NCBI GenBank assembly: GCA_041663145.1
Contig: JBAZRG010000001.1
Location: 156,942 to 220,941, forward strand
Length of the DNA stretch: 64,000 nucleotides
Direction: 5' to 3'
Origin: Minisyncoccota bacterium
GTDB taxonomy: Bacteria > Patescibacteriota > Minisyncoccia > Phycocordibacterales > PALSA-1337
Part shown: positions 5,726 to 49,891 of the stretch, one piece after another
Layout: the number at the start of each line of letters is the position of its first letter
Numbering within the stretch: the stretch's first letter is position 1
The notes under the pieces: model-generated
Seen by the model: only the letters and a program-made list of their open reading frames with translations
Databases searched by the model: none
Told to the model about the DNA's origin: nothing
Made by a program: the position numbers and the translations under genes

Positions 5726-6583
5726 ATGACAATCAATATGAATCATTTATTGAATGTCACAAAATCTGACGGATCCAAACAACTCTTTGAAGAAGAGAAA
5801 CTGGTTAGTTCACTGAAGAGAGTTGGGGCTAGTCCCGAAGCTATAGAGGAAGTTCTCGATGAGGTCGAGAAGGAAATGACTGATGGCATGAAGACATCGG
5901 ATCTTTACGGTAGAGCTTTCGCGCTTTTACGCAAACACTCCATACCATCAGCAGTCAAATATTCGATTCGCCGAGCAATGATGGAGCTCGGTCCTGATGG
6001 TTTCCCATTCGAAAAGTTTGTGGCCAGAATATTTACAATGTGGGGTTATCAAACACTCACCGATCAGACCGTGCTTGGCGGTTGTGTCGATCATGAGATG
6101 GACGTTGTGGCGTGGAAAGACAATGATCTGGCAATGGTTGAAGCCAAATACCATAACGAATTCGGCATGAAAACAGATGTTAAGGTCGCGCTATATGTCA
6201 AAGCCAGGTTCGATGATATAGCAACAACGACATTCAATTACGGCGATATGGAACGCAAATTGACCGAACGATGGCTCATAACCAACACAAAATTTACCGA
6301 TAAAGCCATCAAATACAGCGAATGCAATCATTTGAAGATCCTCGGCTGGAATTATCCAGATTCGAATAACCTACACGATATAATAGAACAAAATGGTTTA
6401 CATCCAATCAGTTGTTTGACCACTTTATCACGACAGCAAAAGATGGATCTCATAGGACGCAATATTCTGGTATGTATAGATATTGTCGGTAAACCAGATA
6501 TCTTGGATTCTATAGGAGTAAAGGGTGTGGAGGCGGAAAAGGTCTTAACCGAAGCTCAAATCATCATAGAACAAGCAAAATAA
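5726..6583 (+). CDS. ATP-cone domain protein fused to an Mrr-like (PD-(D/E)xK) restriction-endonuclease domain
   Basis: The N-terminal ~90 aa has ATP-cone features (KSDGSKQLFEEEKLVSSLKRVGAS...DLYGRAFALLRK). It is followed by GFPFEKFVARIF...DHEMDVVAW...VEAKY, an Mrr_cat-like D...E-x-K motif. Confidence 0.5.
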   Translation: MTINMNHLLNVTKSDGSKQLFEEEKLVSSLKRVGASPEAIEEVLDEVEKEMTDGMKTSDLYGRAFALLRKHSIPSAVKYSIRRAMMELGPDGFPFEKFVARIFTMWGYQTLTDQTVLGGCVDHEMDVVAWKDNDLAMVEAKYHNEFGMKTDVKVALYVKARFDDIATTTFNYGDMERKLTERWLITNTKFTDKAIKYSECNHLKILGWNYPDSNNLHDIIEQNGLHPISCLTTLSRQQKMDLIGRNILVCIDIVGKPDILDSIGVKGVEAEKVLTEAQIIIEQAK

Positions 6584-6615: not shown

Positions 6616-8394
6616 ATGAAAGCGACAAAAACAAAATCATCTACATGGAACTTGGGTCTTTTGTATACTTCGTCGATCGATCCTCAAATCGAAAAGGATA
6701 TGATCGAGCTCGAAGATCTGGCCAAAACATTCGCAAACACATACGATGTTGATGAAAAGAAATATCTCGAAGATGACAATGCTTTGCTAAGCGCGCTTCT
6801 CGACTTTGAAAAAATTATGGAAAAGGCCGACGCAAAGCCATTTTTATATTTTTATTTTCTCCGAGATATAGACTCGAAAAACGAATTGGCATCGGCGCAA
6901 ATCGCCATGTTTCAAAGCCGACTGGCCGTTTGTGAAAATAAAATAGCGTTTTTCAAAATATCACTGGGTACAATCCCCGGGAAAAAACAGAGGCAATTTC
7001 TCTCAAGCTCAACATTGATCAATTATCGGGTTTTTCTAGAAAGGGTCTTTGATGATGCTCAATACATGCTTTCATTGCCGGAAGAGAAAATCATGAATCT
7101 AAAATCCCAAGTCTCCTATGATATGTGGATCGGAGGCAATGAAAAGATCCTCAATCAGCAATCGGTCTTATGGAAAAACAAAAGAATCGCACTATCGCAA
7201 GCGATGTCCTTGGCCACTCAAATGCCGAAACGGGAAGACAGGATAGCTATGTCAAAAGCCGTAGCGACAGTACTCAAGTCTATAGCACCTTTTTCCGAAG
7301 CCGAAATCAATGCAATTGTGACGAATAAAAAAATCGATGACGAACTCCGAGGATTTGCCCAACCATTCGATAGTACAGTCCAAAAATATCGAAATGATCC
7401 GAATGTTGTCCGACAACTGACGGACACGGTCACAAAACGCTTTGATATTTCTCATAGATTTTATGAATTAAAATCGAGATTGATGAAACAAAAGGTCCTG
7501 GCTTATTCGGATCGAGTCGCGAAGATCGGTACAATCAAAACCAAATTTAATTTTGAAAATTCAGTTTCGATATTAAAAGATACGTTCGGTAAATTAAACG
7601 TAAAATTTGCCGATTATCTAGATTCTTATGTTTCATCTGGTCAGATAGACATATATCCACGCATAGGAAAGAAGAGTGGGGCATATTGCGCTGGAACTTA
7701 CAGTAATCCCACTTTCGTACTACTGAATCACATAGACGATCTGCACTCATTTACGACACTAGCACATGAGATGGGTCATGCTTTTCATGGTGAATTGTCT
7801 CGCGTTCAAGGTCCCTTGTATTCCGACTATTCAACATCTCTTGCTGAAACGGCAAGCACGCTATTCGAATCAATAGCCAGAGAGGATGCGTATAAACAAT
7901 TGAATGATAAGGAAAGACTGATAGCTTTGCATGATAAGATCAATGACGATATATGCACTATATTTCGTCAAATAGCTTGTTTCAATTTTGAAGAGGAGAT
8001 ACACAAAGATATTAGAAGTAATGGTTTTATTTCCGAAAAAGCTCTCGCTGAACTTCACAACAAACACATGTCGGCATATTTGGGACCTCGCTTCAAAATG
8101 ACTATCGATGATGGATATTTCTTCGTCAGTTGGAGTCATATACGCAGATTCTTCTATGTCTATTCTTATGCTTATGGGATGTTGGTCTCAAAAGCACTAC
8201 TTAGACGCTACAAAAACGATCCTTCATTCTGGTCAAAAATCGAGATATTCCTAAGCTCCGGCGGTAAGGCTTCTCCGGAACAAATTCTGAATGAAATCGG
8301 TATCGATGTGAGCAAATCCGGCTTCTTCGAAGAAGGTCTGAGTGAAATAGAAGATGATATAAAAGAACTTGAAAAATTGAGTAGCAAAATATGA
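6616..8394 (+). CDS. pepF: oligoendopeptidase F (M3B zinc metallopeptidase)
   Basis: HEXXH zinc motif in the context TLAHEMGHAFHGELS; ~590 aa. Confidence 0.75.
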   Translation: MKATKTKSSTWNLGLLYTSSIDPQIEKDMIELEDLAKTFANTYDVDEKKYLEDDNALLSALLDFEKIMEKADAKPFLYFYFLRDIDSKNELASAQIAMFQSRLAVCENKIAFFKISLGTIPGKKQRQFLSSSTLINYRVFLERVFDDAQYMLSLPEEKIMNLKSQVSYDMWIGGNEKILNQQSVLWKNKRIALSQAMSLATQMPKREDRIAMSKAVATVLKSIAPFSEAEINAIVTNKKIDDELRGFAQPFDSTVQKYRNDPNVVRQLTDTVTKRFDISHRFYELKSRLMKQKVLAYSDRVAKIGTIKTKFNFENSVSILKDTFGKLNVKFADYLDSYVSSGQIDIYPRIGKKSGAYCAGTYSNPTFVLLNHIDDLHSFTTLAHEMGHAFHGELSRVQGPLYSDYSTSLAETASTLFESIAREDAYKQLNDKERLIALHDKINDDICTIFRQIACFNFEEEIHKDIRSNGFISEKALAELHNKHMSAYLGPRFKMTIDDGYFFVSWSHIRRFFYVYSYAYGMLVSKALLRRYKNDPSFWSKIEIFLSSGGKASPEQILNEIGIDVSKSGFFEEGLSEIEDDIKELEKLSSKI

Positions 8395-8430
8395 TTGGAA
8401 ACAATAGATTATTTTTGATACTATGTAAAT

Positions 8431-17539: not shown

Positions 17540-17664
17540 GTAATTAGCCGTTCGGACCCCCTTTCGTCGTAGTAGGTATATACTAGCTGACTCAAAATCA
17601 AAAATCAACTTCCATTAACATCAAATGCATGTTATAGTCATTTTAGACCAAAAAGTGATTATCT

Positions 17665-17997
17665 ATGTCAAATCTAAACAATAGATTGCTCTCCAAACTG
17701 CTATGGATATACTATTGGGTCATATCCAAAATCCTGTGGAAAAGACGTCGCAGGAGAACACACAAACTTCATCAACTAATTCAACAGATCATCAGTTCAA
17801 ACGGGGACAGTGGGGCAATTGCTACATTTGAAGTCTGTGAGCACTACCACGAATACTACTGTATTCCTCTGGAGAAAGCCGGTTTCAAAGGTACACTAAA
17901 TGACCTGCGTCAACAGGCCACAAAATCAGTCGAAAGAGCCCACAAACGCGAAGAAGAAACTCTTAGAAACGCGGCTGTTTACGTTCGGAATTCCTAA
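17665..17997 (+). CDS. hypothetical protein
   Basis: 110-aa ORF with an N-terminal hydrophobic segment then an RRRRR tract. No recognised family. Confidence 0.3.
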   Translation: MSNLNNRLLSKLLWIYYWVISKILWKRRRRRTHKLHQLIQQIISSNGDSGAIATFEVCEHYHEYYCIPLEKAGFKGTLNDLRQQATKSVERAHKREEETLRNAAVYVRNS

Positions 17998-18026
17998 CGA
18001 GAATCGTACCAATAAACAGTCACGTC

Positions 18027-18050
18027 TGGCGCATATTGCGCCATTTTTTA
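18027..18050 (+). terminator. rho-independent terminator
   Basis: TGGCGCA-TAT-TGCGCCA perfect 7-bp stem followed by TTTTTT. Confidence 0.5.
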
Positions 18051-18126
18051 TTGAGCTAAATGCAGTAGACGAAATAAATGAACAATAAATATTGCATCAA
18101 CAGATTTTTTCCTATATGCTTTATGA

Positions 18127-18726: not shown

Positions 18727-18749
18727 TTTGAGAATTTTATCTCGTATTA

Positions 18750-18892
18750 CCCCAACATAATGTTCCCAGAACAATCCGAGTATGCGATTGAGCTTCGAAA
18801 AATTACCCGTGTTTGGTGAAGCCTTGGAACCAAACACGGTTGTAATTTGAGAAGCGATTACGCAGGATTGTGACGGGAACATTATGTTGGGG
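18750..18892. repeat. MITE-like imperfect palindromic repeat element, copy 1 (~143 bp, 18-bp terminal inverted repeats CCCCAACATAATGTTCCC / GGGAACATTATGTTGGGG)
   Basis: A near-identical copy in reverse-complement orientation lies at 28050-28191. Internal nested hairpin CCGTGTTTGG...CCAAACACGG. Confidence 0.7.
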
Positions 18893-19108
18893 TTTATGCA
18901 TAACATAAATTGTTGAATTTTAACTTTTCTTGTAGTACCATAGATGCATAAACATGCTTACACCCTATTATCAACCACAATTTCTTTCAAGAGTCTTCAC
19001 AGATCCTACGGGTCGTCAGTTTCGATTGACTTTCCTTGTCGCTCTCGTAAATGGTGAACTAAAGGGCCGTCTAGTATCTGCCGAACCTCTATCTCAAAAT
19101 ACATCTTA

Positions 19109-19360
19109 TCACTCCATTTCCTGTGGTACGACTGATAATATTTGCCTACCGATCATCTGTTCTTCAAAAACACCTTCAACTCCATATATTCCATCATTTG
19201 CCCCTGTCGTTTCTCCATATTTTTCTCTAGAATTTCTCATAAATAGCCAACCTACGAGAGCTCCTGCGAACCTATCGTAGTTTCGATCTATAAAAGTCTT
19301 GATTGAAGACATAATAAGTCTAATGTCGATCAACACTTCTAATACATAATCTGTATTCAA
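19109..19360 (-). CDS. hypothetical small protein (weak)
   Basis: 83-aa ORF divergent from dnaK, in a 500-bp gap that is otherwise noncoding. No family recognised. Confidence 0.2.
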   Translation of the reverse strand: MNTDYVLEVLIDIRLIMSSIKTFIDRNYDRFAGALVGWLFMRNSREKYGETTGANDGIYGVEGVFEEQMIGRQILSVVPQEME

Positions 19361-19369
19361 TACAGAATT
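19341..19369 (+). promoter_or_regulatory. operator-like palindrome with three alternating half-sites, adjacent to a TATAAT box upstream of dnaK
   Basis: AATACA-TAATC-TGTATT-CA-ATACAGAATT forms overlapping inverted repeats. TATAAT lies at 19375-19380 and the dnaK ATG at 19397. Confidence 0.35.
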
Positions 19370-19396
19370 ACTAATATAATCACTGAATAAATCTCT

Positions 19397-21358: not shown

Positions 21359-21364
21359 AAAAAG

Positions 21365-21416
21365 GACCCTCACAGCTTTCCCGAGAAATACTCGGGGAAG
21401 TGAATGAGGGTCTTTT
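21365..21416 (+). terminator. rho-independent terminator after dnaK
   Basis: GGACCCTCA...TGAGGGTC stem with an inner CCCGAG/CTCGGG stem, then a T-tract. Confidence 0.6.
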
Positions 21417-21436
21417 ATAGACAGAATGTGCATGCG

Positions 21437-21814
21437 CTATTGTAAACCGCGCTCTTCCACTAATGTTCGAAAGAGCTGAACCCCTCGTACACTGACACCA
21501 CTTATTCTAGATAACCTATGGTCAGTTTGTTTTATCAGGAGTCGAAGCGGGATATCGCCATAGGTCTTAAATCCGACAGCAAAGTCATTGCCAAGCGGAT
21601 TTACAGCCTTATCAAGCACACTGTGAAAGAAAGGAGTGTGACTAATTCTTTTGTCACCTTTAAAGGACTGTGCAAACTCTCGGAAGGTTAAACCTTGAGA
21701 ATCGCGATCATCAACCACTCTACTCTTATTTGACAAAATACTGCGCACCCTGTTGATCTCGACCTCTATATTTTCCAGTGACTCTAAAATCATCTTCATA
21801 TCTCTATCTATCAT
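21437..21814 (-). CDS. hypothetical protein on the opposite strand between dnaK and dnaJ
   Basis: 125-aa ORF with coding-like composition. It is convergent with dnaK and divergent from dnaJ. No family recognised. Confidence 0.4.
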   Translation of the reverse strand: MIDRDMKMILESLENIEVEINRVRSILSNKSRVVDDRDSQGLTFREFAQSFKGDKRISHTPFFHSVLDKAVNPLGNDFAVGFKTYGDIPLRLLIKQTDHRLSRISGVSVRGVQLFRTLVEERGLQ

Positions 21815-21913
21815 TTATACCTTTCCTGCAAAACTACGAGTCTTGCAAAGTACTACAAAATATCGTAACATAACAATCACAATAATGTCAATTCAAGAAT
21901 CGCATAAAAAACA

Positions 21914-23072: not shown

Positions 23073-24608
23073 ATGACAATCATTACTTATGTAAAAAGAC
23101 ATAGATTCATAGCTACAGTTGGTTCAATAACCATCATATTACTGGCTATTATCCTTGGACGAATGAATGGATCCGAATCAGTATCCAATGATCCAAATTC
23201 AATCAAAAAAGTAGAACTCGTGAGTGTATCGACATTTCGAGAAGGATATTCGAATGTTCCAGCAGACGGTATAGTCGAGTCCAATGCCCAAGCCGATCTC
23301 AAGAGTCAGGTTTCTGCACTCATTTCCTCTATAAATGTAAATATCGGCGATCCTGTCTATGCAGGACAAACTATCATAGTCCTTCAAAATGCTGACATTC
23401 AAGCTCAGTTGGCTCAAGCAGAAGCATCACTTGCTCTTGCAAAAGGACAATTTGAAACTGGAGATCTGTCTCTGGATTCAGCAAAAAGCAGCGCTATGGA
23501 CAAGATAAGAGACGCTTATACCAAGGCATATGAAACAGTCTTCTCAGATATAGATCCATTGCTCTACAACTATGATGGTAGAGGTTCTCATTTCTCTGCC
23601 TTTGTCTCTGATTATACGACCAGCAATGAAATACAAAATATCAGAATCGATCTCTCGACATCATTTCGATTTTGGAAAAACATCAACGATAAACTCAATG
23701 ATTCTTCAAGCGTAGAATCTATATTGTCAGCTGTTTCCGAATCACAAAAAAATCTGACATCGATAGATCGAATGCTCGAAAATATTTCTGAAGCTCTAAA
23801 CGACCTATCGAGAGTAAGTCAAGGTGAATCCGCTACAACTGTTAATACATGGAAGACTATAGTAGCTCTATCACGATCAACTATAAATGGTTCCATTCAG
23901 ACTTTGACGGGTGCAAAAGCTACGCTATCTACTACAGGATCTACACAAAATGAAACAGCGCCAGCTCAGATACGTCTAGCTGAAGCAGGAGTCAACAATT
24001 TGAAAGCACAGCTGGCAAAAACCATCATCCGAAGTCCGATAAACGGACGAGTAGCCGCTTTACCTTTGCGTTCGGGCGAATTGGCAACACCAGGTTTACT
24101 GTTGGCAACTGTGGTGGGAGAAGGTGATCTCCTAATAAAGGCATTTGCTTCAAGTGAAGATTCACCACGGATCACGCAGGGTGCAAGCGTAACCATGGAT
24201 GGTGGCATAAAAGGCACGGTGCAAAGTTTTTCACCAAGCTTGAGTTTTAGCAATAAAAAAGTCGAAGTCATAATAAAGGTCTTGAATCCAGAAACATCCG
24301 GACTCATCGTGGGCGACAGTGTGCATGTATCCATAACCGTTCCCGATTCAAAAGTGAATAATGTCTCACAGGTTGACAATAATAACGGAAATATAAAATA
24401 CATATTGCCGATACAGAACGTAAAGATCATTCCCGGTAACGCTTTCGTATTTACAGTCGATAGTGATTCCAAGATCGTACGAAATGAAGTGACCCTAGGT
24501 GAAGTCCGCGGCGACTTTATCGAAATCAAATCCGGACTAAGAGATGATATGAATATCGTCTCTCCGGTTTACGAACTAGATGAAGGACAACAGGTCAAGA
24601 CTGATTGA
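23073..24608 (+). CDS. efflux periplasmic adaptor (HlyD/membrane-fusion protein family)
   Basis: N-terminal TM helix, a biotinyl/lipoyl-like hairpin (...INVNIGDPVYAGQTIIVL...), coiled coil and a beta-barrel C-terminus. Confidence 0.7.
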   Translation: MTIITYVKRHRFIATVGSITIILLAIILGRMNGSESVSNDPNSIKKVELVSVSTFREGYSNVPADGIVESNAQADLKSQVSALISSINVNIGDPVYAGQTIIVLQNADIQAQLAQAEASLALAKGQFETGDLSLDSAKSSAMDKIRDAYTKAYETVFSDIDPLLYNYDGRGSHFSAFVSDYTTSNEIQNIRIDLSTSFRFWKNINDKLNDSSSVESILSAVSESQKNLTSIDRMLENISEALNDLSRVSQGESATTVNTWKTIVALSRSTINGSIQTLTGAKATLSTTGSTQNETAPAQIRLAEAGVNNLKAQLAKTIIRSPINGRVAALPLRSGELATPGLLLATVVGEGDLLIKAFASSEDSPRITQGASVTMDGGIKGTVQSFSPSLSFSNKKVEVIIKVLNPETSGLIVGDSVHVSITVPDSKVNNVSQVDNNNGNIKYILPIQNVKIIPGNAFVFTVDSDSKIVRNEVTLGEVRGDFIEIKSGLRDDMNIVSPVYELDEGQQVKTD

Positions 24609-27600
24609 TCGTTAAACATACCTTTATGTCAAAAAATAATAATGATCATTCATCAGATAGTAGATATTTGGATCGGTTGACCTTCAATCCCGAACTGAGA
24701 AAGTCGTGGCTAAACTATTTCGTCACGAATTTTCGTGTAGTAGTACTACTCATTGTTGTCATTTCGACTTGGGGTTTGTATTCGTTCTTTACTTTACCCC
24801 GTGAATCCAGTCCGGAGGTCAAAATACCGATAGCGATCGTCACTACGGCTTTTCCGGGCGCGTCGCCGACAGATGTTGAACAATTCGTAACAAGAAAAAT
24901 AGAGGCAGAACTGTCGGGACTGAAGGGATTGCATAATATTACTTCAAATTCATTCAATTCTTTTTCATCGATAGTTGTCGAATTTGAAGCCAATGCCGAT
25001 ATTCAGAGTTCGATCCAAGCACTGCGTGATGCTGCTAGCAAATCGAAACCAAATATTTCCACGGAAGCCGAAGACCCCGTAGTTACCGAAATTTCCATCG
25101 ATGATATGCCGATATGGTCGATCTCGATCACTGGACCATATGATGGATTTACACTGCGAAAGTACGCCGAGGATATACAAAATGAGCTCGAAAAAATCTC
25201 GGGCGTTCGTGAGGTCAACATCTCAGGAGGGGATGTAAGAGAATATGAAATCGCGTATAGACCCGATCGTCTACTCTATTATGGAATAACTGTAAACGAT
25301 GCCAATCAAGCAGTTCTAGCTACCCGTACAGCTATTCCATCTGGAAATTTTGATACAGAAACATTCGTCGTCCCCGTAAAGACAGAAACTGGAGCAGAAA
25401 CTATTGCCGAAATTTCGAATATACCAATTTCTCATAGTGAAAATGGTAGTACAGTCATGCTTCGAGATATTGCAAATGTTTCGGAAAAAGCCGTAAAAAA
25501 ATCTTCTTATTCACGCCTATCCACCGATGGACAACCGAGTAAAAATTCAGTCAACTTATCCATCATCAAACGTCAAGGAGCATCGATATTGGAGACAGTA
25601 GATGCCGCAAAATTGACGGTTGAAAAAGCAGTGAAATCTTTTCCGCCCGGCATTACATACACAGTCGGACAAGATTTCGCGGAACTCGTCCGAAATGATT
25701 TCAATCAATTATTTCACGATTTTCTCCTGACAGTTCTTCTGGTCTCAATTATTCTATTTTTGATTGTTGGATTAAAGGAAGCATTCGTAGCCGGTCTTGC
25801 TATTCCTCTAGTATTCTTTATCACATTCGGCTGTCTATCTCTTCTCGGAATATCGCTGAACTTTCTTTCGATGTTCTCGTTGATCTTAGCGCTTGGTCTC
25901 CTTGTTGATGATGCTATAGTTGTAGTATCGGCTACTAAACAATATCTGAATACCGGAAAGTTCACGCCAGAAGAAGCGGTTCTATTGGTACTTCGAGATT
26001 TTAAGTGGGTGCTGACTACGACCACTCTAGCCACAGTCTGGGCATTTCTGCCTCTACTCTTCGCAACCGGTATTATCGGGCAATATCTGAAATCAATACC
26101 GATCACCGTATCGATCACTCTTGTCGCTTCTCTTTTGATCGCTCTTATGGTCAATCATCCTTTGGCGGCAGTACTCGAACGTATACGACTCACCCGAAAA
26201 TTCTTTTTGGCGATCGAGGCTCTGCTCATCACAGTATCCGTGATTTTGCTTTATTCAGGCGGTACATTGTCGGTTATTGTGAGCGTGATCCTGATATCGA
26301 TACTAGGCTATCTGATCTGGTGGTATGAAAAAGGTGGAAAGGAAAAGATGCTCATCAATGCCGGGACAATGGAAAAGGAATGGGAATCTGATGAATTGAT
26401 AAAAGAAAAACTTCGCATCCAAGGAAGTAGGGAACATGAAAATTTCGCAGGCAAGATCATGCACGGCATCGTCGATTTTCACCTCGTTCTACCTGTATAC
26501 GAGCGAACATTCAGACATTATATTTTGGACAAAAAGAGACGCAGGAGAGTCCTAGCCGGAGTAGTCCTCTTATTCGTTTTCTCTGTGGCACTTATACCGC
26601 TTGGTTTTGTAAAAAGTGTATTTTTCCCATTGCAAGACAGCGACTATGTATTCATCGATCTCAAAGCTCCGGTCGGCACCAATTTAATCGAAACAGACAA
26701 TCGTACGAAATCCGTAGAAAGTCAATTGCTTGGTTATAAGGAAATAGAAAGCATGACAACGATCATCGGTAGTGCCAGTGCCAACTCAGGATCATTCACC
26801 GGCGGAGGCAGTGGTACAAATCTGGCGTCGATCTCGATCACTCTCAAAGACGCCAAAGAAAGATCGGTAAAATCTTATGAATTCGCCGATACATTGAGAA
26901 AAGATCTGGCAAGTACGACAAATCTGGTAGTGAATGTTTCTACCGAATCAGGCGGTCCGCCATCAGGATCGACTTTCGAGGCCCATATCGCTGGTGATGA
27001 TCTCGACAAACTGGGAGGTATCATCCGAGATCTAAAACCGATGTTAACTTCCATAAGTGGAGTCATAAACGTCAACGTATCACAGAAAGAATCAATTCCA
27101 GAATATACCTTTGTACTTGATCCGATTGCGATGGAAAGGAACAATCTAAACTCAGCTATTGTGGGATCGGTTCTTCGCACGGCAATCTCGGGAGTTGAAC
27201 TCACAAAAATCGTTCAAGGAGAAAAAGAAATCCAACTTATCGCGACATTCGACCAGAGATCGATCCCAGATTTGGCGGCTATTCAAAATCTCCAGATCTT
27301 GAATGCCCAAAAACAGCCTGTATTTCTCAAAGATATAGCAAAGATAGAACTAAGACCGGCAGTCGATGTCATAACCAGAATCGATCAAAAAAGAACAGTG
27401 GTTTTATCAGCTGGAGCAGATTCATCGACTAATGGTCAGACGATCTTGGCCTCATTCGAGAAGAAATTGGCTGATTATGAAATGCCAGCCGGCTATACGA
27501 TCTCCTTTGGCGGAGAAAATGAACAAAATGCCGAATCCGTAGCATCGGTACTTCGAGCAATGCTCATCGCTCTGGTCCTCATCGTTGCAACACTCATCAT

Positions 27601-28030
27601 CCAGTTCAACTCTTTCCGAAAAGCCCTGATCGTCCTTGTGCCGATACCGCTAGCTCTCATCGGTGTATTTATAGGAATGGCGGTATTCGATGTTCCTCTA
27701 TCATTCCCGGGACTTATCGGTATTCTGGCTTTGTTCGGTATCGTGGTGAAAAATGCGATCATCCTAGTCGATAAGATAAACCTGAATATTAAAAGTGGTA
27801 TAACATTCGAAGATGCCATAGCGGACGCGGGCAAGTCACGATTGGAAGCAATCTTCATCACTTCTATCTGTACGATCATCGGTATATTACCAGTGACTCT
27901 TTCAAATGAACTTTGGAGGTCGCTGGGCGGCGCTGTGATATTCGGTCTCACGCTTTCATCGTTCCTGACTCTATATATCGTACCGGCATTCTTCCTGATC
28001 TTGGTTAAGGATAAAAAGCAACACTACTAG
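24605..28030 (+). CDS. RND-family efflux transporter permease (AcrB-like)
   Basis: 1141 aa. Paired large periplasmic loops and conserved TM4-like LALGLLVDDAIVVV. It overlaps the adaptor gene by 4 nt. Confidence 0.8.
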   Translation: MIVKHTFMSKNNNDHSSDSRYLDRLTFNPELRKSWLNYFVTNFRVVVLLIVVISTWGLYSFFTLPRESSPEVKIPIAIVTTAFPGASPTDVEQFVTRKIEAELSGLKGLHNITSNSFNSFSSIVVEFEANADIQSSIQALRDAASKSKPNISTEAEDPVVTEISIDDMPIWSISITGPYDGFTLRKYAEDIQNELEKISGVREVNISGGDVREYEIAYRPDRLLYYGITVNDANQAVLATRTAIPSGNFDTETFVVPVKTETGAETIAEISNIPISHSENGSTVMLRDIANVSEKAVKKSSYSRLSTDGQPSKNSVNLSIIKRQGASILETVDAAKLTVEKAVKSFPPGITYTVGQDFAELVRNDFNQLFHDFLLTVLLVSIILFLIVGLKEAFVAGLAIPLVFFITFGCLSLLGISLNFLSMFSLILALGLLVDDAIVVVSATKQYLNTGKFTPEEAVLLVLRDFKWVLTTTTLATVWAFLPLLFATGIIGQYLKSIPITVSITLVASLLIALMVNHPLAAVLERIRLTRKFFLAIEALLITVSVILLYSGGTLSVIVSVILISILGYLIWWYEKGGKEKMLINAGTMEKEWESDELIKEKLRIQGSREHENFAGKIMHGIVDFHLVLPVYERTFRHYILDKKRRRRVLAGVVLLFVFSVALIPLGFVKSVFFPLQDSDYVFIDLKAPVGTNLIETDNRTKSVESQLLGYKEIESMTTIIGSASANSGSFTGGGSGTNLASISITLKDAKERSVKSYEFADTLRKDLASTTNLVVNVSTESGGPPSGSTFEAHIAGDDLDKLGGIIRDLKPMLTSISGVINVNVSQKESIPEYTFVLDPIAMERNNLNSAIVGSVLRTAISGVELTKIVQGEKEIQLIATFDQRSIPDLAAIQNLQILNAQKQPVFLKDIAKIELRPAVDVITRIDQKRTVVLSAGADSSTNGQTILASFEKKLADYEMPAGYTISFGGENEQNAESVASVLRAMLIALVLIVATLIIQFNSFRKALIVLVPIPLALIGVFIGMAVFDVPLSFPGLIGILALFGIVVKNAIILVDKINLNIKSGITFEDAIADAGKSRLEAIFITSICTIIGILPVTLSNELWRSLGGAVIFGLTLSSFLTLYIVPAFFLILVKDKKQHY

Positions 28031-28049
28031 AATGTCATCTTCCATAGAA

Positions 28050-28191
28050 CTCAACATAATGTTCCCGCCACAATCCTGCGTAATCGCTTCTCAAATTACA
28101 ACCGTGTTTGGTTCCAAGGCTTCACCAAACACGGGTAATTTTTCGAAGCTCAATCGCATACTCGGATTGTTCTGGGAACATTATGTTGGGG
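28050..28191. repeat. MITE-like element, copy 2 (reverse-complement of the 18750-18892 copy)
   Basis: The same 16-18-bp terminal inverted repeats. The interior is the reverse complement of copy 1 with a few substitutions. Confidence 0.7.
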
Positions 28192-28273
28192 TCATGACAT
28201 AAGTTCGCAAAATATTCGACGAAAACAAATAAGGATGTGTTGGGGTTACGCCTCAGACTTTCTAGAATGTTAT

Positions 28274-28452
28274 CAACGTCACCCTCTCGCACATCTTTCT
28301 TTTTTCTTCCGAGAATAATCTGCGAAATAATATACCAATACATTTTCCAAAGGATGCGCGAATCCTTGTAGCGCATCCTTTGTGAAAATGTTGGTATATT
28401 GTGAGCAGAGTTCGAGGATGAAAAAAGAAAGATGTGCGAGAGGGTGACGTTG
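28274..28452. repeat. second, distinct 179-bp near-perfect palindromic element with 33-bp perfect terminal inverted repeats
   Basis: CAACGTCACCCTCTCGCACATCTTTCTTTTTTC at 28274-28306 has its exact reverse complement at 28420-28452. The interior is also largely self-complementary. Confidence 0.65.
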
Positions 28453-28512
28453 TAGATTACAAACAACAAACGCACGTTGTGCTTCGAGGGGTGGACGAGT
28501 TATAATTTGCCC

Positions 28513-29490
28513 ATGAAAAAGATACTAATATCCGGCGTCAAACCGACCGGCAGACCTCATATAGGTAATTATTTTGGAGCCATGAAGCAATTCGTGGATC
28601 TTTTGAAGTCAGATAAATATCATTGTTTTTTCTTTATCGCCGACTATCACGCACTCAACCTTATTCAGGACGCCAAAGAGATGAAAAGCAACACACTCGA
28701 TCTAGCAATCGATTATTTGGCACTTGGACTCGATCCTGAGAATGCCACTTTATTCAAACAGTCAGACATAGGAGCTCATACCGAAACTGCTTGGATATTC
28801 GACACCATAGTCACCGTGCCATACCTCATGCGCGCTCATGCCTACAAAGACGCTCAAGCGAAGAATGCTGAGATCAATGTTGGCACTTTCAATTATCCAG
28901 TACTTATGGCCGCAGATATCCTACTCTATGACAGCGATGTAGTACCTGTAGGACAAGATCAAAAGCAACATATCGAATATGCCCGAGACATAGCGGATAA
29001 ATTCAATCACATTTATTGTCTCGATAAAGGTCTAGATCCGATACTAAAGACACCTGAACCGCTCATACTCTCCTCAGTCGCCACAGTTCCGGGAATAGAC
29101 GGACGCAAAATGTCAAAAAGTTACAACAATACGATTTCATTGTTTGCCACACGCGAAGAAATACAAAAAGATGTGATGGGTATTGTCACCGATTCGGGTG
29201 GAACAGAAAATGAAGGCATTCCAGTCAATGTATATGCCATTCACAAACTCTTTAAGACTGAAGATGAACTCAAAACATTGTATGAGACGAATAAAGGAAA
29301 GTATAAGATTCTGAAAGAAGCGCTCATCGAAGATATCGATGCTTACATAAAACCGCTACGGGAAAAACGAGACTCTATAGCAAATGATACAGATCGTGTG
29401 ATGAAGGTTCTAGAAGACGGCGCAAAAAAAGCAAACACTATCGCAAACAAGAAACTCCTCGAAATAAAACGGGCGATTGGCGTCATCTAA
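28513..29490 (+). CDS. trpS: tryptophanyl-tRNA synthetase
   Basis: KPTGRPHIGNY (HIGH-like) ... KMSKS (GRKMSKSYNN). TATAAT at 28501-28506 lies just upstream. The start was chosen at MKKIL rather than the longer upstream ORF extension. Confidence 0.85.
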   Translation: MKKILISGVKPTGRPHIGNYFGAMKQFVDLLKSDKYHCFFFIADYHALNLIQDAKEMKSNTLDLAIDYLALGLDPENATLFKQSDIGAHTETAWIFDTIVTVPYLMRAHAYKDAQAKNAEINVGTFNYPVLMAADILLYDSDVVPVGQDQKQHIEYARDIADKFNHIYCLDKGLDPILKTPEPLILSSVATVPGIDGRKMSKSYNNTISLFATREEIQKDVMGIVTDSGGTENEGIPVNVYAIHKLFKTEDELKTLYETNKGKYKILKEALIEDIDAYIKPLREKRDSIANDTDRVMKVLEDGAKKANTIANKKLLEIKRAIGVI

Positions 29491-33664: not shown

Positions 33665-33727
33665 TAGCGAAGTAGTTTAGGTAAGCAAAAATAGCCATTA
33701 TGTGGCTATTTTTGTTATACTATACAC

Positions 33728-35123: not shown

Positions 35124-36458
35124 ATGATAAAAGGAAATCAGAATAAAAATATAACATTTGACGCACTGATTTTATCAGTAGTAATCTTTGTATTCATTAC
35201 ATTAAATAATAGTGGTACATCAAAATCCGTATTTACTTCTTTACGCGAAGTCAGTGCTCAAACCGCCGACGAACTCCAAGCCAGAATAGACGATAGAAAT
35301 GAAGCCATCGCCAATCTGGAAAAAGACATAAAGGAATATCAGAAACAGCTCGATCAGTTGAGCAAAGAGGCAAATACTTTATCCGCCCATATCAAATCTC
35401 TCGCTCTGACCAAAAAACAACTGGAATCGAAAATATCACTTACACAAGACAAGATCCGTGCCAAGAATGATCAGATCCAGCAACTCGGAAAACAAATAAA
35501 AAACAAAGAAGGGAATATCGACTATGATAAACGGATTATCAGCCAATCATTCGCGACAATCAATGAGATTGATAAGGATTCCTTAGTCGAGCTAATACTG
35601 AGTGGCAATTCATTGTCGCAATCATGGAATCGGCTCGAACAGTTAAGCCTGTTACAAAAAGGTGTAAGTGAAAAGATCGTAAGTCTCAATCAAGACAAAA
35701 CAGATCTGGAAACAAATCGTGTTGCCAGTGAAAAAGCCAAAGCCGAGCTTGAGGTATTGAACAAACAACTTTCTTCCGAACGGGCCATCATCCTTACTAC
35801 TACCGCTGAACAAAATCAATTATTAAAACAAACCAACCAGTCCGAATCATCTTACAAAAAGATGCTCGCCGCCAAAAAAGCCGAGGCTGAAGCGTTCGAG
35901 AAAGAGATCGCCAACCTAGAAACACAACTCAATATTCTGATCAATCCAAGCTCGATACCACATACAGGTTCAGGTGTCTTGAGTTGGCCACTTGCGAACA
36001 TCTTCATAACCCAATATTTTGGCAATACAGCATTCGCCACAGCCAATCCTCAGATATACAATGGCAAAGGACATACTGGCGTCGATTTTCGCGCAACTAT
36101 AGGTACTCAGGTCAAATCGGCATTAGCCGGAGAAGTTATTGGTCTCGGCAATACCGATCTTTATGCCGGGTGCGCCTCTTACGGCAAATGGGTCATGGTA
36201 AAGCATAACAATGGTCTATCGACTCTATATGCCCACCTATCGCTTCATTCTGTTAAGGTAGGTGACATGGTCGAGACTGGAACATTGCTAGGTTATAGTG
36301 GAAACACTGGATACTCGACTGGTCCGCATCTGCACTTCGGCGTTTATGCCACCGAAGGTGTTCGTCTCCAAAAATTCACAACAAGTCGAAACTGCAAAGG
36401 CGCAACAATACCGATCGCTGACTATAGCGCCTACCTAAATCCGCTTTCATATTTGTAA
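35124..36458 (+). CDS. M23-family peptidase with an N-terminal coiled coil (EnvC-like)
   Basis: Long coiled-coil region, then GHTGVDFRA ... GNTGYSTGPHLHFGVY (M23 HxxxD/HxH motifs). Confidence 0.75.
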   Translation: MIKGNQNKNITFDALILSVVIFVFITLNNSGTSKSVFTSLREVSAQTADELQARIDDRNEAIANLEKDIKEYQKQLDQLSKEANTLSAHIKSLALTKKQLESKISLTQDKIRAKNDQIQQLGKQIKNKEGNIDYDKRIISQSFATINEIDKDSLVELILSGNSLSQSWNRLEQLSLLQKGVSEKIVSLNQDKTDLETNRVASEKAKAELEVLNKQLSSERAIILTTTAEQNQLLKQTNQSESSYKKMLAAKKAEAEAFEKEIANLETQLNILINPSSIPHTGSGVLSWPLANIFITQYFGNTAFATANPQIYNGKGHTGVDFRATIGTQVKSALAGEVIGLGNTDLYAGCASYGKWVMVKHNNGLSTLYAHLSLHSVKVGDMVETGTLLGYSGNTGYSTGPHLHFGVYATEGVRLQKFTTSRNCKGATIPIADYSAYLNPLSYL

Positions 36459-48164: not shown

Positions 48165-48522
48165 AGGAGGTAGACCAAAAATAATAGATGAAATCATTAT
48201 TGAAAAACTTGAGTTGGCATTTTCAATGGATGCAACTGATGATGAAGCGTGCTTTTATGCGGATATTTCACCTGCAACGCTGTATAACTATCAAAAGGAT
48301 AATCCAGTGTTTTTAGAGAGAAAAAACCAGTTAAAGCAAAATCCTGTTTTGCTTGCTCGAAAGACAGTTGTAGCGAAAATCCCAGAATCCTATCAAAACG
48401 CTATGGATTACTTGAAACGAAAGAGAAAGCGAGAGTTTGGCGATAACGTAGATATGACTACGAATGGCGAGAAGATAAACATAAGCTTCGACACTTCATT
48501 CAAACCAGATGCTTCTGTATGA
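48154..48522 (+). CDS. terminase small subunit (putative)
   Basis: MKNKGGRPKIIDEIIIEKLELAFSMDATDDEAC... gives an HTH N-terminus typical of TerS. It directly precedes TerL. Confidence 0.5.
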   Translation: MKNKGGRPKIIDEIIIEKLELAFSMDATDDEACFYADISPATLYNYQKDNPVFLERKNQLKQNPVLLARKTVVAKIPESYQNAMDYLKRKRKREFGDNVDMTTNGEKINISFDTSFKPDASV

Positions 48523-49891
48523 CAAACAAAAGATAATTGTCTCTAGTCCTGCTCGATTCAAAGTCGTTAGATCAGGTCGCAGATCAGGTAAAAGCACAGT
48601 AGCTATTGAAATCATGCTCTTTACAGCGGTCTCCAAGCGAAATCAGAATGTCTTTTACTTGAGTCCGAACATGAAGCAGTCTAGGGCTATTATCTGGGAG
48701 GCACTGAAAGCTAGGTTGAATGGCATAGGCAAGTTGAATGAAAGCAGGTTAGAAGTAGAGTTACCTACAACTGACGGCGGAGTATCGAGGATATACCTAT
48801 CAGGTTTCGAGGCGAGGGAGAACTTCAGAGGATTGCGTGCCGATCTTATAATCTTTGACGAGGTAGACACATGTAAAGACTTCTTCATTGGCTTTCAAGA
48901 GATATTCCGCCCTGCACTTATCGACACGGCCGGAAGTGTAGTATTCATCGGTACACCAAAGAAAGAAAATCCTAACCTTAGACGCTTGGAGAAAATATCA
49001 CAGACTGACAAGGACTATGCGTGCTTTCACTTTACCTCACTTGATAATCCATTCCTACCACAATCAGAAAAGGATAAAGCTAAAACAGAACTAGACTTTG
49101 ATACTTACAAGCAGGAGATACTTGCCGAGTATGTCGACAACGCTGGCTCGCTATTCAAGTATGAAGCTCTCATAGACGTATTCTCTAACACTATAGTCAA
49201 AGAGAATAGCAAGTATCTCATCGTAGACATCGCTGATGACGGCTCGGATAAGACAATATTCTCATTCTGGGAAGGACTTGAGGAGTATAAGCGTGAGGAG
49301 TTTGATAGGTTAAACACAGAAATGATTATAGGAAAGATACGAGAGTATGCCTCTACTGAACGTATCCCTTACTCGCATATAGCCGTTGATGCCATAGGCG
49401 TAGGTGCAGGTGTGGCATCTTCATCCTTGCTAGACGGTATCGTGGGATATAAGTCATCATATGGTCCAATAAAGACTGACCAGAGCATCGTGTTACTTCC
49501 TAACGCCGGATATTTCAGAGATGCTTCACTTGTATCGGAGTATAAGAACCTACGCTCTCAATGCGTATTCAATCTCGCCGACCTAGTGAACAATCACAAA
49601 ATCGCCTCAAGAGTTACTGGTCGTCAGAAAGAAGTAATCATCGAGGAACTCTCAAACTACCAAGACGCTTCACAAGGTGACGGTAAGCGTATGGCTACCA
49701 TGAAAGAGAATGTTAAAGAAGCGATAGGTCATTCACCCGATGCATCAGACTGCTACATCATGCGTATGTACTTCGTAATTCTAGGGCGTATGATACCCGG
49801 ACAGTCCGAAGAATCATCACGAGTAGCTACTATCCAACAGAATCGTTTTGCTATGAATAAAAAGAATCAGATACTAAATGGAACGAAGTAG
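48509..49891 (+). CDS. terminase large subunit
   Basis: Walker A VVRSGRRSGKST and Walker B LIIFDEVD. The size and nuclease-domain region are consistent with TerL. Confidence 0.85.
   Translation: MLLYDKQKIIVSSPARFKVVRSGRRSGKSTVAIEIMLFTAVSKRNQNVFYLSPNMKQSRAIIWEALKARLNGIGKLNESRLEVELPTTDGGVSRIYLSGFEARENFRGLRADLIIFDEVDTCKDFFIGFQEIFRPALIDTAGSVVFIGTPKKENPNLRRLEKISQTDKDYACFHFTSLDNPFLPQSEKDKAKTELDFDTYKQEILAEYVDNAGSLFKYEALIDVFSNTIVKENSKYLIVDIADDGSDKTIFSFWEGLEEYKREEFDRLNTEMIIGKIREYASTERIPYSHIAVDAIGVGAGVASSSLLDGIVGYKSSYGPIKTDQSIVLLPNAGYFRDASLVSEYKNLRSQCVFNLADLVNNHKIASRVTGRQKEVIIEELSNYQDASQGDGKRMATMKENVKEAIGHSPDASDCYIMRMYFVILGRMIPGQSEESSRVATIQQNRFAMNKKNQILNGTK

Follow-up and report, generated by a model that had tools for sequence, protein, structure and literature searches.

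The 482-nt spacer between an RND (AcrB-type) transporter gene (24605-28030, + strand) and trpS, encoding tryptophan--tRNA ligase (28513-29490, + strand), in an uncultured Paceibacterota (CPR) bacterium contains a 179-nt palindrome (28274-28452), here termed E2. The question raised by this locus is whether the palindrome is a mobile element, an RNA structure serving one of the two flanking genes or an accident of DNA rearrangement or sequence assembly. All positions refer to the window, i.e. the whole 64-kb stretch of DNA that was analysed, unless a related locus is named. The local gene order is grpE, dnaK, dnaJ, hlyD-like, RND (AcrB-type), trpS, scpA, scpB, ftsW, and nearly all genes of the window are located on the + strand. 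A second palindromic element, E1, lies just after the RND gene in the same spacer. The distances given in the initial annotation were borne out: counted from the RND stop (28030) to the trpS ATG (28513) the spacer is 482 nt long, and E2 starts 78 nt past the neighbouring copy of E1 and ends 60 nt before the trpS ATG.

E2 is bounded by perfect 33-nt arms, exactly as had been claimed: the left arm, CAACGTCACCCTCTCGCACATCTTTCTTTTTTC (28274-28306, + strand), recurs as its precise reverse complement at 28420-28452 (- strand). With up to 3 mismatches allowed, CAACGTCACCCTCTCGCACATCTTTCTTTTTTC had just two matches in the 64-kb window, a number reached in 0 of 100 dinucleotide shuffles. At 93 % complementarity the arms reach 42 nt according to the repeat finder, which also detected an inner inverted pair (28343-28359/28371-28387), in agreement with the earlier remark that the interior is largely self-complementary. 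RNA folding, which the initial annotation had proposed, returned for the + strand a single hairpin of 76 base pairs (2 of them G-U) with an 11-nt loop at 28360-28370 and a fold energy of -120.2 kcal/mol (z = -22.1); the - strand gave -110.5 kcal/mol (z = -20.2) with 73 pairs and 0 G-U. E2 is thus predicted to form one long hairpin, either as RNA or as single-stranded DNA. From its perfect 33-bp base the hairpin passes through a loosely paired middle into an almost perfect apical stem-loop (28343-28387; stems 28343-28359 and 28371-28387, loop GAATCCTTGTA), and all its irregularities, in the form of bulges and internal loops, fall in 28307-28326 of the 5' arm and the partner zone 28403-28419. 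The apex resembles a local 15-nt near-tandem duplication (GCGCGAATCCTTGTA / GCGCATCCTTTGTGA).

The GC content of E2 (41 %) equals that of its surroundings. The only long ORF across the element comprises 117 aa on the - strand and had no Pfam match. The heptamer ATGTTAT (28267-28273, + strand) abuts the left arm, and its degenerate mirror GATTACA (reverse complement TGTAATC; 28455-28461, - strand) is found 3 nt outside the right arm. Inside E2 an extended -10-like motif, TGGTATATT, points toward trpS (28392-28400, + strand) and has a mirror copy on the - strand (28329-28337). These outward-facing motifs resemble the extended -10 boxes of the host as a consensus match only, the general pattern being not enriched over chance.

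Palindromes are possible products of assemblers, and an independent Logan contig ends inside the right arm of E2, so it had to be considered whether the element is a fold-back chimera of the metagenome-assembled genome. This origin is very improbable because E2 has bulges in its interior, which is not perfectly paired, and an 11-nt loop that is asymmetric, features not expected of a fold-back artefact. The contig (run SRR18595301) starts at 28423, exactly where a 33-nt inverted repeat must interrupt a k=31 graph, and its sequence confirms that the right arm is joined to trpS.

E2 is situated upstream of a tRNA synthetase gene, as T-box leaders are, and the initial annotation suggested that it could be a cis-regulatory RNA hairpin of trpS, naming a T-box riboswitch and a leader conserved with trpS as alternatives. 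What speaks for a dedicated leader of any kind (T-box riboswitch, attenuator or other cis-regulatory 5' UTR structure) is its position alone, 60 nt upstream of the trpS start; the promoter of the gene argues against it. A TATAAT -10 box is present at 28501-28506 (+ strand), 6 nt before the ATG, and its position is conserved: a -10 hexamer (TATAAT, TAAAAT or TATCAT) ending 6-7 nt before the ATG was found in all seven trpS genes compared, preceded by the TGn extension in six of the seven. Because of this arrangement the trpS mRNA is predicted to be leaderless, starting at approximately 28513, about 60 nt downstream of E2. E2 occupies approximately -61 to -239 relative to that predicted start, upstream even of the expected -35 position, and therefore would not be a 5' UTR structure of the predicted leaderless transcript. 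The possibility that E2 supplies a promoter to trpS was also rejected, as the right end of the element is at least 25 nt upstream of the expected -35 position.

The search for known RNA families pointed in the same direction. No Rfam family, T-box (RF00230) included, matched E2 when the whole window was scanned at the gathering threshold, and at E<=10 the region 27950-28600 gave no T-box but just sub-threshold microRNA-precursor models, which score any long hairpin. Nothing comparable to E2 was found upstream of the six orthologous trpS genes, whose upstream spacers go down to 20 nt. A dedicated trpS leader is consequently the most improbable of the explanations considered here. E2 differs from T-box leaders in having no covariance-model match, no conservation and a position upstream of the predicted leaderless promoter; the two alternatives named earlier fail, one on the Rfam search and the other on the missing counterparts in six orthologous loci, and the suggested cis-regulatory hairpin is not upheld for an element preceding a promoter whose position is retained in 7/7 orthologs. 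Annotating E2 as a leader or riboswitch of trpS should be avoided.

The trpS promoter follows a layout common among the chromosomal genes of the window: in 12 out of 26 the ATG is preceded at 5-8 nt by a -10 box of the form TANNNT, frequently TGnTANNNT, and hardly any gene has a Shine-Dalgarno-like motif. Examples of such boxes, the one of trpS included, are located at 2262-2270, 8416-8424, 28501-28506 and 33713-33721. Among the prophage-like genes the -10 signature was seen in just one of 26. The literature collection searched yielded no paper on leaderless genes in Parcubacteria or Patescibacteria. A leaderless layout of trpS and of about half of the chromosomal window genes would matter for gene calling and for the way in which "upstream" elements are read in this lineage.

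The comparison with orthologous loci, also proposed in the initial annotation, was performed on six of them (L024, L027, L028, L030, L031 and L032; L025 and L026 share the gene arrangement of L024), and E2 was absent from all six. The TrpS proteins of these loci are 72-77 % identical to that of the window, the closest relatives reaching 77 %. In blastn against L024, L027 and L028 the nucleotide similarity begins just 12 nt before the trpS ATG, and on the upstream side it ends at the RND stop codon in L027; the 457 nt between these edges have no counterpart in any of the six loci. In L028 and L030 dnaJ is followed by trpS after 20 and 72 nt, respectively. The slot of L024 measures 107 nt and is nearly filled by an unrelated 86-nt palindrome with the ends TGTCAT...ATGACA, and that of L031 carries a reverse 136-aa ORF. 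In L027 and L032 hlyD-RND is inserted as in the window, and is followed by three small ORFs in the former (no remnant of which was detected in the window by tblastn) and by a reverse 278-aa ORF in the latter. A clean empty site was found in none of the six relatives, as the slot holds other DNA in each. Because the content differs in every relative examined, the RND-trpS spacer is considered a variable insertion slot, and the idea of an insertion hotspot put forward in the initial annotation is supported by this comparison.

Several further observations were made in the related loci. The 86-nt palindrome of L024 (2102-2187 in that locus; -44.7 kcal/mol, z = -10.7) ends 7 nt before the trpS -10 box, and its termini are the same hexamer as that of the E1 ends. 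A 138-nt palindromic element is present in L032 between scpA and scpB (6795-6932; arms of 50 nt with 72 % complementarity); it contains two copies of ACTTTAGTCAACTAAAGT and has different ends, without TGTYAT. Both scpA and scpB are missing between trpS and ftsW in L024 (3191-3816) and L028 (5462-6019), where approximately 560-630 nt without a called gene replace them; the L028 stretch includes a hairpin with 22-nt arms (5766-5819).

Other parts of the window also deserve a brief description. The spacers around grpE-dnaK-dnaJ (17540-18126, 18899-19396 and 21359-21913) are unusually long (500-670 nt) for such a tightly packed genome; relatives hold Fic/RhuM, PemK or small ORFs in these positions, and the spacers may represent decayed insertions. 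A prophage-like region (approximately 37800-64000) directly follows the M23 peptidase gene (35124-36458), the last gene syntenic with relatives. It encodes NinG, two NUMOD3-motif proteins, an HNH endonuclease, a Gp80-like fibre protein and a large terminase (48509-49891), besides many ORFs without a Pfam match. A 285-aa protein (5726-6583) combines an ATP-cone with an Mrr-type restriction-endonuclease catalytic domain, an uncommon pairing. No tRNA was detected by a scan of the 64-kb window.

The copy number of E2 was assessed at several levels. Even permissive blastn revealed a single copy in the 64-kb window. An exact 20-mer of the arm had two matches in 185,579 species-representative genomes, both to a single arm and inside high-GC coding sequence. 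An exact 18-mer had 19 matches in the JGI metagenomes, all single-arm, 18-24 nt long and none extending, and one non-extending single-arm match in IMG/VR. The three arm-word matches that were inspected all lay inside coding sequence, and by estimate chance alone would give roughly as many matches. The source contig was not among the matches of these exact-word scans, which bear on the public collections and not on the rest of the source genome. Neither the 19-mer of the E2 apex nor the E1 repeat terminus was found in IMG/VR, and the whole spacer had no match in phage and plasmid collections by blastn in distant mode. A six-frame pseudo-protein of the spacer found nothing among 5.8 billion proteins in a search of low power, in which the repeated E1 was missed too.

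The arm boundaries, TGTTAT/CAACG on the left and CGTTG/TAGATT on the right, were inspected for a target-site duplication, and no direct repeat of 2 nt or more was present. A 2-nt direct repeat, AA, appears just when the ends of E2 are moved out to TGTTAT and ATTACA. No transposase, integrase, recombinase or Y1/HUH domain was recognised among the approximately 50 proteins of the window.

E1, the neighbour of E2, is a 153-nt palindromic repeat with inverted-repeat arms of approximately 30 nt. Its two copies, 97 % identical, lie 9.3 kb apart in inverted orientation: copy 1 just downstream of grpE (18746-18898, + strand) and copy 2 just after RND, in the spacer shared with E2 (28043-28195, - strand). 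A gapped alignment suggests that one end of E1 extends approximately 25 nt further (GAATAWTTTGMGAAYT), overlapping the grpE stop codon. The hairpin architecture of E1 is similar to that of E2 and less perfect.

According to the initial annotation the two elements are unrelated, which proved true of the stems and of the sequences as a whole: global and local alignments of E1 with E2 were not significant (Smith-Waterman z ~1.4; 56 of 500 shuffles were as good). Their ends and apical loops, on the other hand, have motifs in common. The heptamer ATGTYAT, reading inward at the ends or a few nt outside them, occurs at three of the four E1 ends (28032-28038 at the left end of copy 2 and, as the reverse complement, 28194-28200 at its right end and 18900-18906 at the right end of copy 1) as well as at the left end of E2. 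There are 34 occurrences of ATGTYAT on both strands of the window (128 kb), 4 of them at element ends, and for any one specified end the estimated probability of a chance occurrence within ~13 nt is ~0.4 %. The 11-nt loops of the minimum free energy folds, GAAGCCTTGGA in E1 and GAATCCTTGTA in E2, are identical at 9 of 11 positions, and the pattern GAAKCCTTGKA has exactly three perfect matches in the window, which are the three apices (18818-18828, 28113-28123 and 28360-28370); no match was found in the 32 loci compared. On the + strand 9 of the 11 positions of the E1 copy 2 loop, UCCAAGGCUUC, are complementary to the E2 loop, which lies 240 nt further downstream, and a loop-loop contact of the two elements within one transcript is therefore conceivable. 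The shared end and loop motifs were noticed post hoc, and in E2 the loop has the appearance of a near-copy of the neighbouring arm produced by slippage. They suggest, without being proof, that the two elements are of one kind, and the claim that E1 and E2 are unrelated should be restricted accordingly.

Two more sequence features were seen around the elements. A 13-mer, CTAGAATGTCATC / CTAGAATGTTATC (12/13 identical), is located immediately to the left of both E1 copy 2 (28027-28039, overlapping the RND stop codon) and E2 (28262-28274), and appears too well placed to be comfortably attributed to chance. With CTAGAATGTYATC at both 28027 and 28262, a 13-bp target-site duplication around E1 was considered and rejected: the ends of the enclosed segment do not match, and the additional 45 nt are missing from the other E1 copy. 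GTGTTGGGGTTAC (28240-28252), located in the 78 nt that separate E1 from E2, resembles the E1 terminal repeat ATGTTGGGGT and may be a solo remnant of another E1-type end.

The explanation that we favour, and to which we assign about an even chance, is that E2 is a MITE-like, non-coding hairpin element of the same class as E1, residing in a variable slot. E2 encodes nothing itself; an enzyme provided in trans, recognising either the ends of the element or the hairpin that it forms, would have lodged it between the hlyD-RND operon and trpS, at a site that appears variable in this lineage. The most direct challenge to this scenario is a one-off inverted duplication of spacer DNA, formed by template switching or fold-back repair, never mobile and without function, the middle of which has since decayed. 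The single copy of E2 in everything searched would fit such an event, as would the missing target-site duplication and transposase, and the near-tandem duplication at the apex, GCGCGAATCCTTGTA / GCGCATCCTTTGTGA, suggests slippage during formation of a palindrome. Against it speak the mismatches, which are clustered instead of evenly spread, leaving 33 perfect basal pairs and a near-perfect apical stem, and the end heptamer and loop motif in common with the dispersed neighbour E1. We regard an isolated duplication as rather unlikely.

Another possibility is that selection has retained the hairpin for a function at the 3' end of the RND mRNA, be it that of a terminator, an insulator, a stabiliser or a site of RNase III processing, and that it perhaps forms a kissing-loop pair with E1. 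A terminator scan detected no canonical terminator between RND and trpS (28031-28512), which would leave room for such a role, and the two loops are complementary as described. The relative L024 has its unrelated 86-nt hairpin at the equivalent place, between dnaJ and the trpS promoter, and the + strand of E2 folds slightly better than the - strand (76 versus 73 pairs). This strand asymmetry, however, rests on two G-U pairs, and five of the six relatives have no long hairpin upstream of trpS. E2 does not have the form of an intrinsic terminator, i.e. a short G+C-rich hairpin with a U-tract; its stem is followed by UAGAUUACAAAC, without a U-tract. The genome itself also speaks against such a role: most of its genes are packed 20-40 nt apart without terminators, and it has ordinary short terminators elsewhere, e.g. 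at 33675-33725. Selection for an RNA function at this site is accordingly judged unlikely.

If E2 is the MITE-like hairpin element favoured above, it might still influence the RNA in which it lies. Since no terminator separates RND from E2, the RND transcript probably runs into both palindromic elements, with E2 in its 3' tail. The transcribed element would fold into the hairpin of 76 base pairs with its perfect 33-bp basal stem, and could then block 3' exonucleases or serve as a substrate of RNase III, and hinder read-through into the trpS promoter. trpS would be transcribed, leaderless, from its own -10 box 48 nt downstream of E2. The presence of this downstream box means that any effect of E2 on trpS would at most be indirect.

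The features common to E1 and E2 allow a broader and quite improbable proposal, namely that these two elements, and perhaps the 86-nt palindrome of L024, belong to an undescribed class of Paceibacterota (CPR) hairpin elements with conserved ends and loop, recognised in folded form. Such a class may be set by structure and TGTYAT-type ends, not by stem sequence, and the GAAKCCTTGKA loop would belong just to E1 and E2. A conserved base and loop with freely varying stems is seen in sites recognised as folded single strands, such as integron attC sites, ssoA origins and IS200/IS605 ends. If the class were real, a dedicated hairpin-recognising enzyme or RNA-binding partner would be expected in these reduced genomes, and adjacent elements might interact through their complementary loops. 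The common end and loop motifs are the sole part of the present findings that could lead somewhere new. Palindromic MITE-like repeats are common in bacteria. Should E2 be mobile, it would enlarge the small set of non-autonomous repeats seen in CPR bacteria, a group with small and streamlined genomes, and the dnaJ/RND-trpS junction would be a recurrent insertion slot.

Compared with known classes, E2 has some of the traits of MITEs. It possesses terminal inverted repeats (33 nt perfect, or 42 nt at 93 %), is shorter than ~500 bp (179 bp) and has no coding capacity, its ORF being without a Pfam match and the six-frame search empty. The six orthologous loci, which encode 72-77 % identical TrpS, lack E2 but have other DNA in the slot, so that none of them represents a clean empty site. 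A target-site duplication was not found, dispersed copies were not seen (one copy in the 64-kb window and chance matches alone in public collections), and none of the approximately 50 window proteins is a candidate parent transposase. The initial description of E2 as a MITE-like or hairpin element is thus right in that E2 is a genuine palindromic hairpin element; it is at most a candidate MITE, with a single copy in the 64-kb window, no target-site duplication, no transposase in the window and no copy found in public collections. E1 resembles E2 in its palindromic hairpin architecture (153 versus 179 nt), its location downstream of a gene, the ATGTYAT ends and the 9/11 loop, and differs from it in having an unrelated stem and two copies in the window instead of one. 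A full-text literature search for MITEs in CPR bacteria returned one incidental mention only.

REPIN/REP sequences owe their mobility to RAYT (IS200-like) transposases; they are intergenic inverted-repeat doublets that form hairpins and insert without duplicating the target site. E2 is likewise an intergenic hairpin of inverted repeats without a target-site duplication, but its arms are not themselves short REP palindromes, a GTAG-type tetranucleotide occurs just at the right boundary, and no protein with a Y1_Tnp domain is encoded in the window. In integron attC sites, which recombine in the form of folded single strands, an imperfect palindrome carries ...AAC / GTT... close to its base. Both elements recall these sites, with CAAC...GTTG in E2 and CCCCAAC...GTTGGGG in E1. 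The E2 sequence TATCAAC/GTTGTAG, compared by eye with the consensus RYYYAAC/GTTRRRY, fits it at 5 of 7 positions, and the 33-bp stem is perfect, without the unpaired central spacer or extrahelical bases. E2 as a whole is longer than a typical attC. There is no integrase in the window and no cassette array near E2. An attC site, a dif/Xer site, an ssoA origin, a retron msd, a protelomerase site and a prophage att site were all rejected as identities of E2, because the motifs that define them, or the genes that go with them, are missing; conserved housekeeping genes, moreover, lie between E2 and the prophage-like region.

The closest parallels are offered by the bacterial MITEs that fold into long hairpins, such as ERIC and YPAL of enterobacteria and RPE of Rickettsia. 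Like these and the Correia repeat-enclosed elements of Neisseria, E2 is a non-coding intergenic sequence in the range of 100-200 bp with terminal inverted repeats; elements of these families are co-transcribed with their neighbours and fold into hairpins. E2 differs from them in showing no sequence similarity to any known family, in its single copy, and in having neither a TA or other target-site duplication nor an identified partner transposase. The outward-facing TGGTATATT motifs on both strands of E2 are a further likeness to Correia elements, whose ends can generate promoters and which RNase III can bind or cleave (PMC2649163). By analogy, the consequences expected of E2 would be those of Correia-type elements: binding or cleavage by RNase III, stabilisation of the transcript and possibly outward promoters (PMC2649163).
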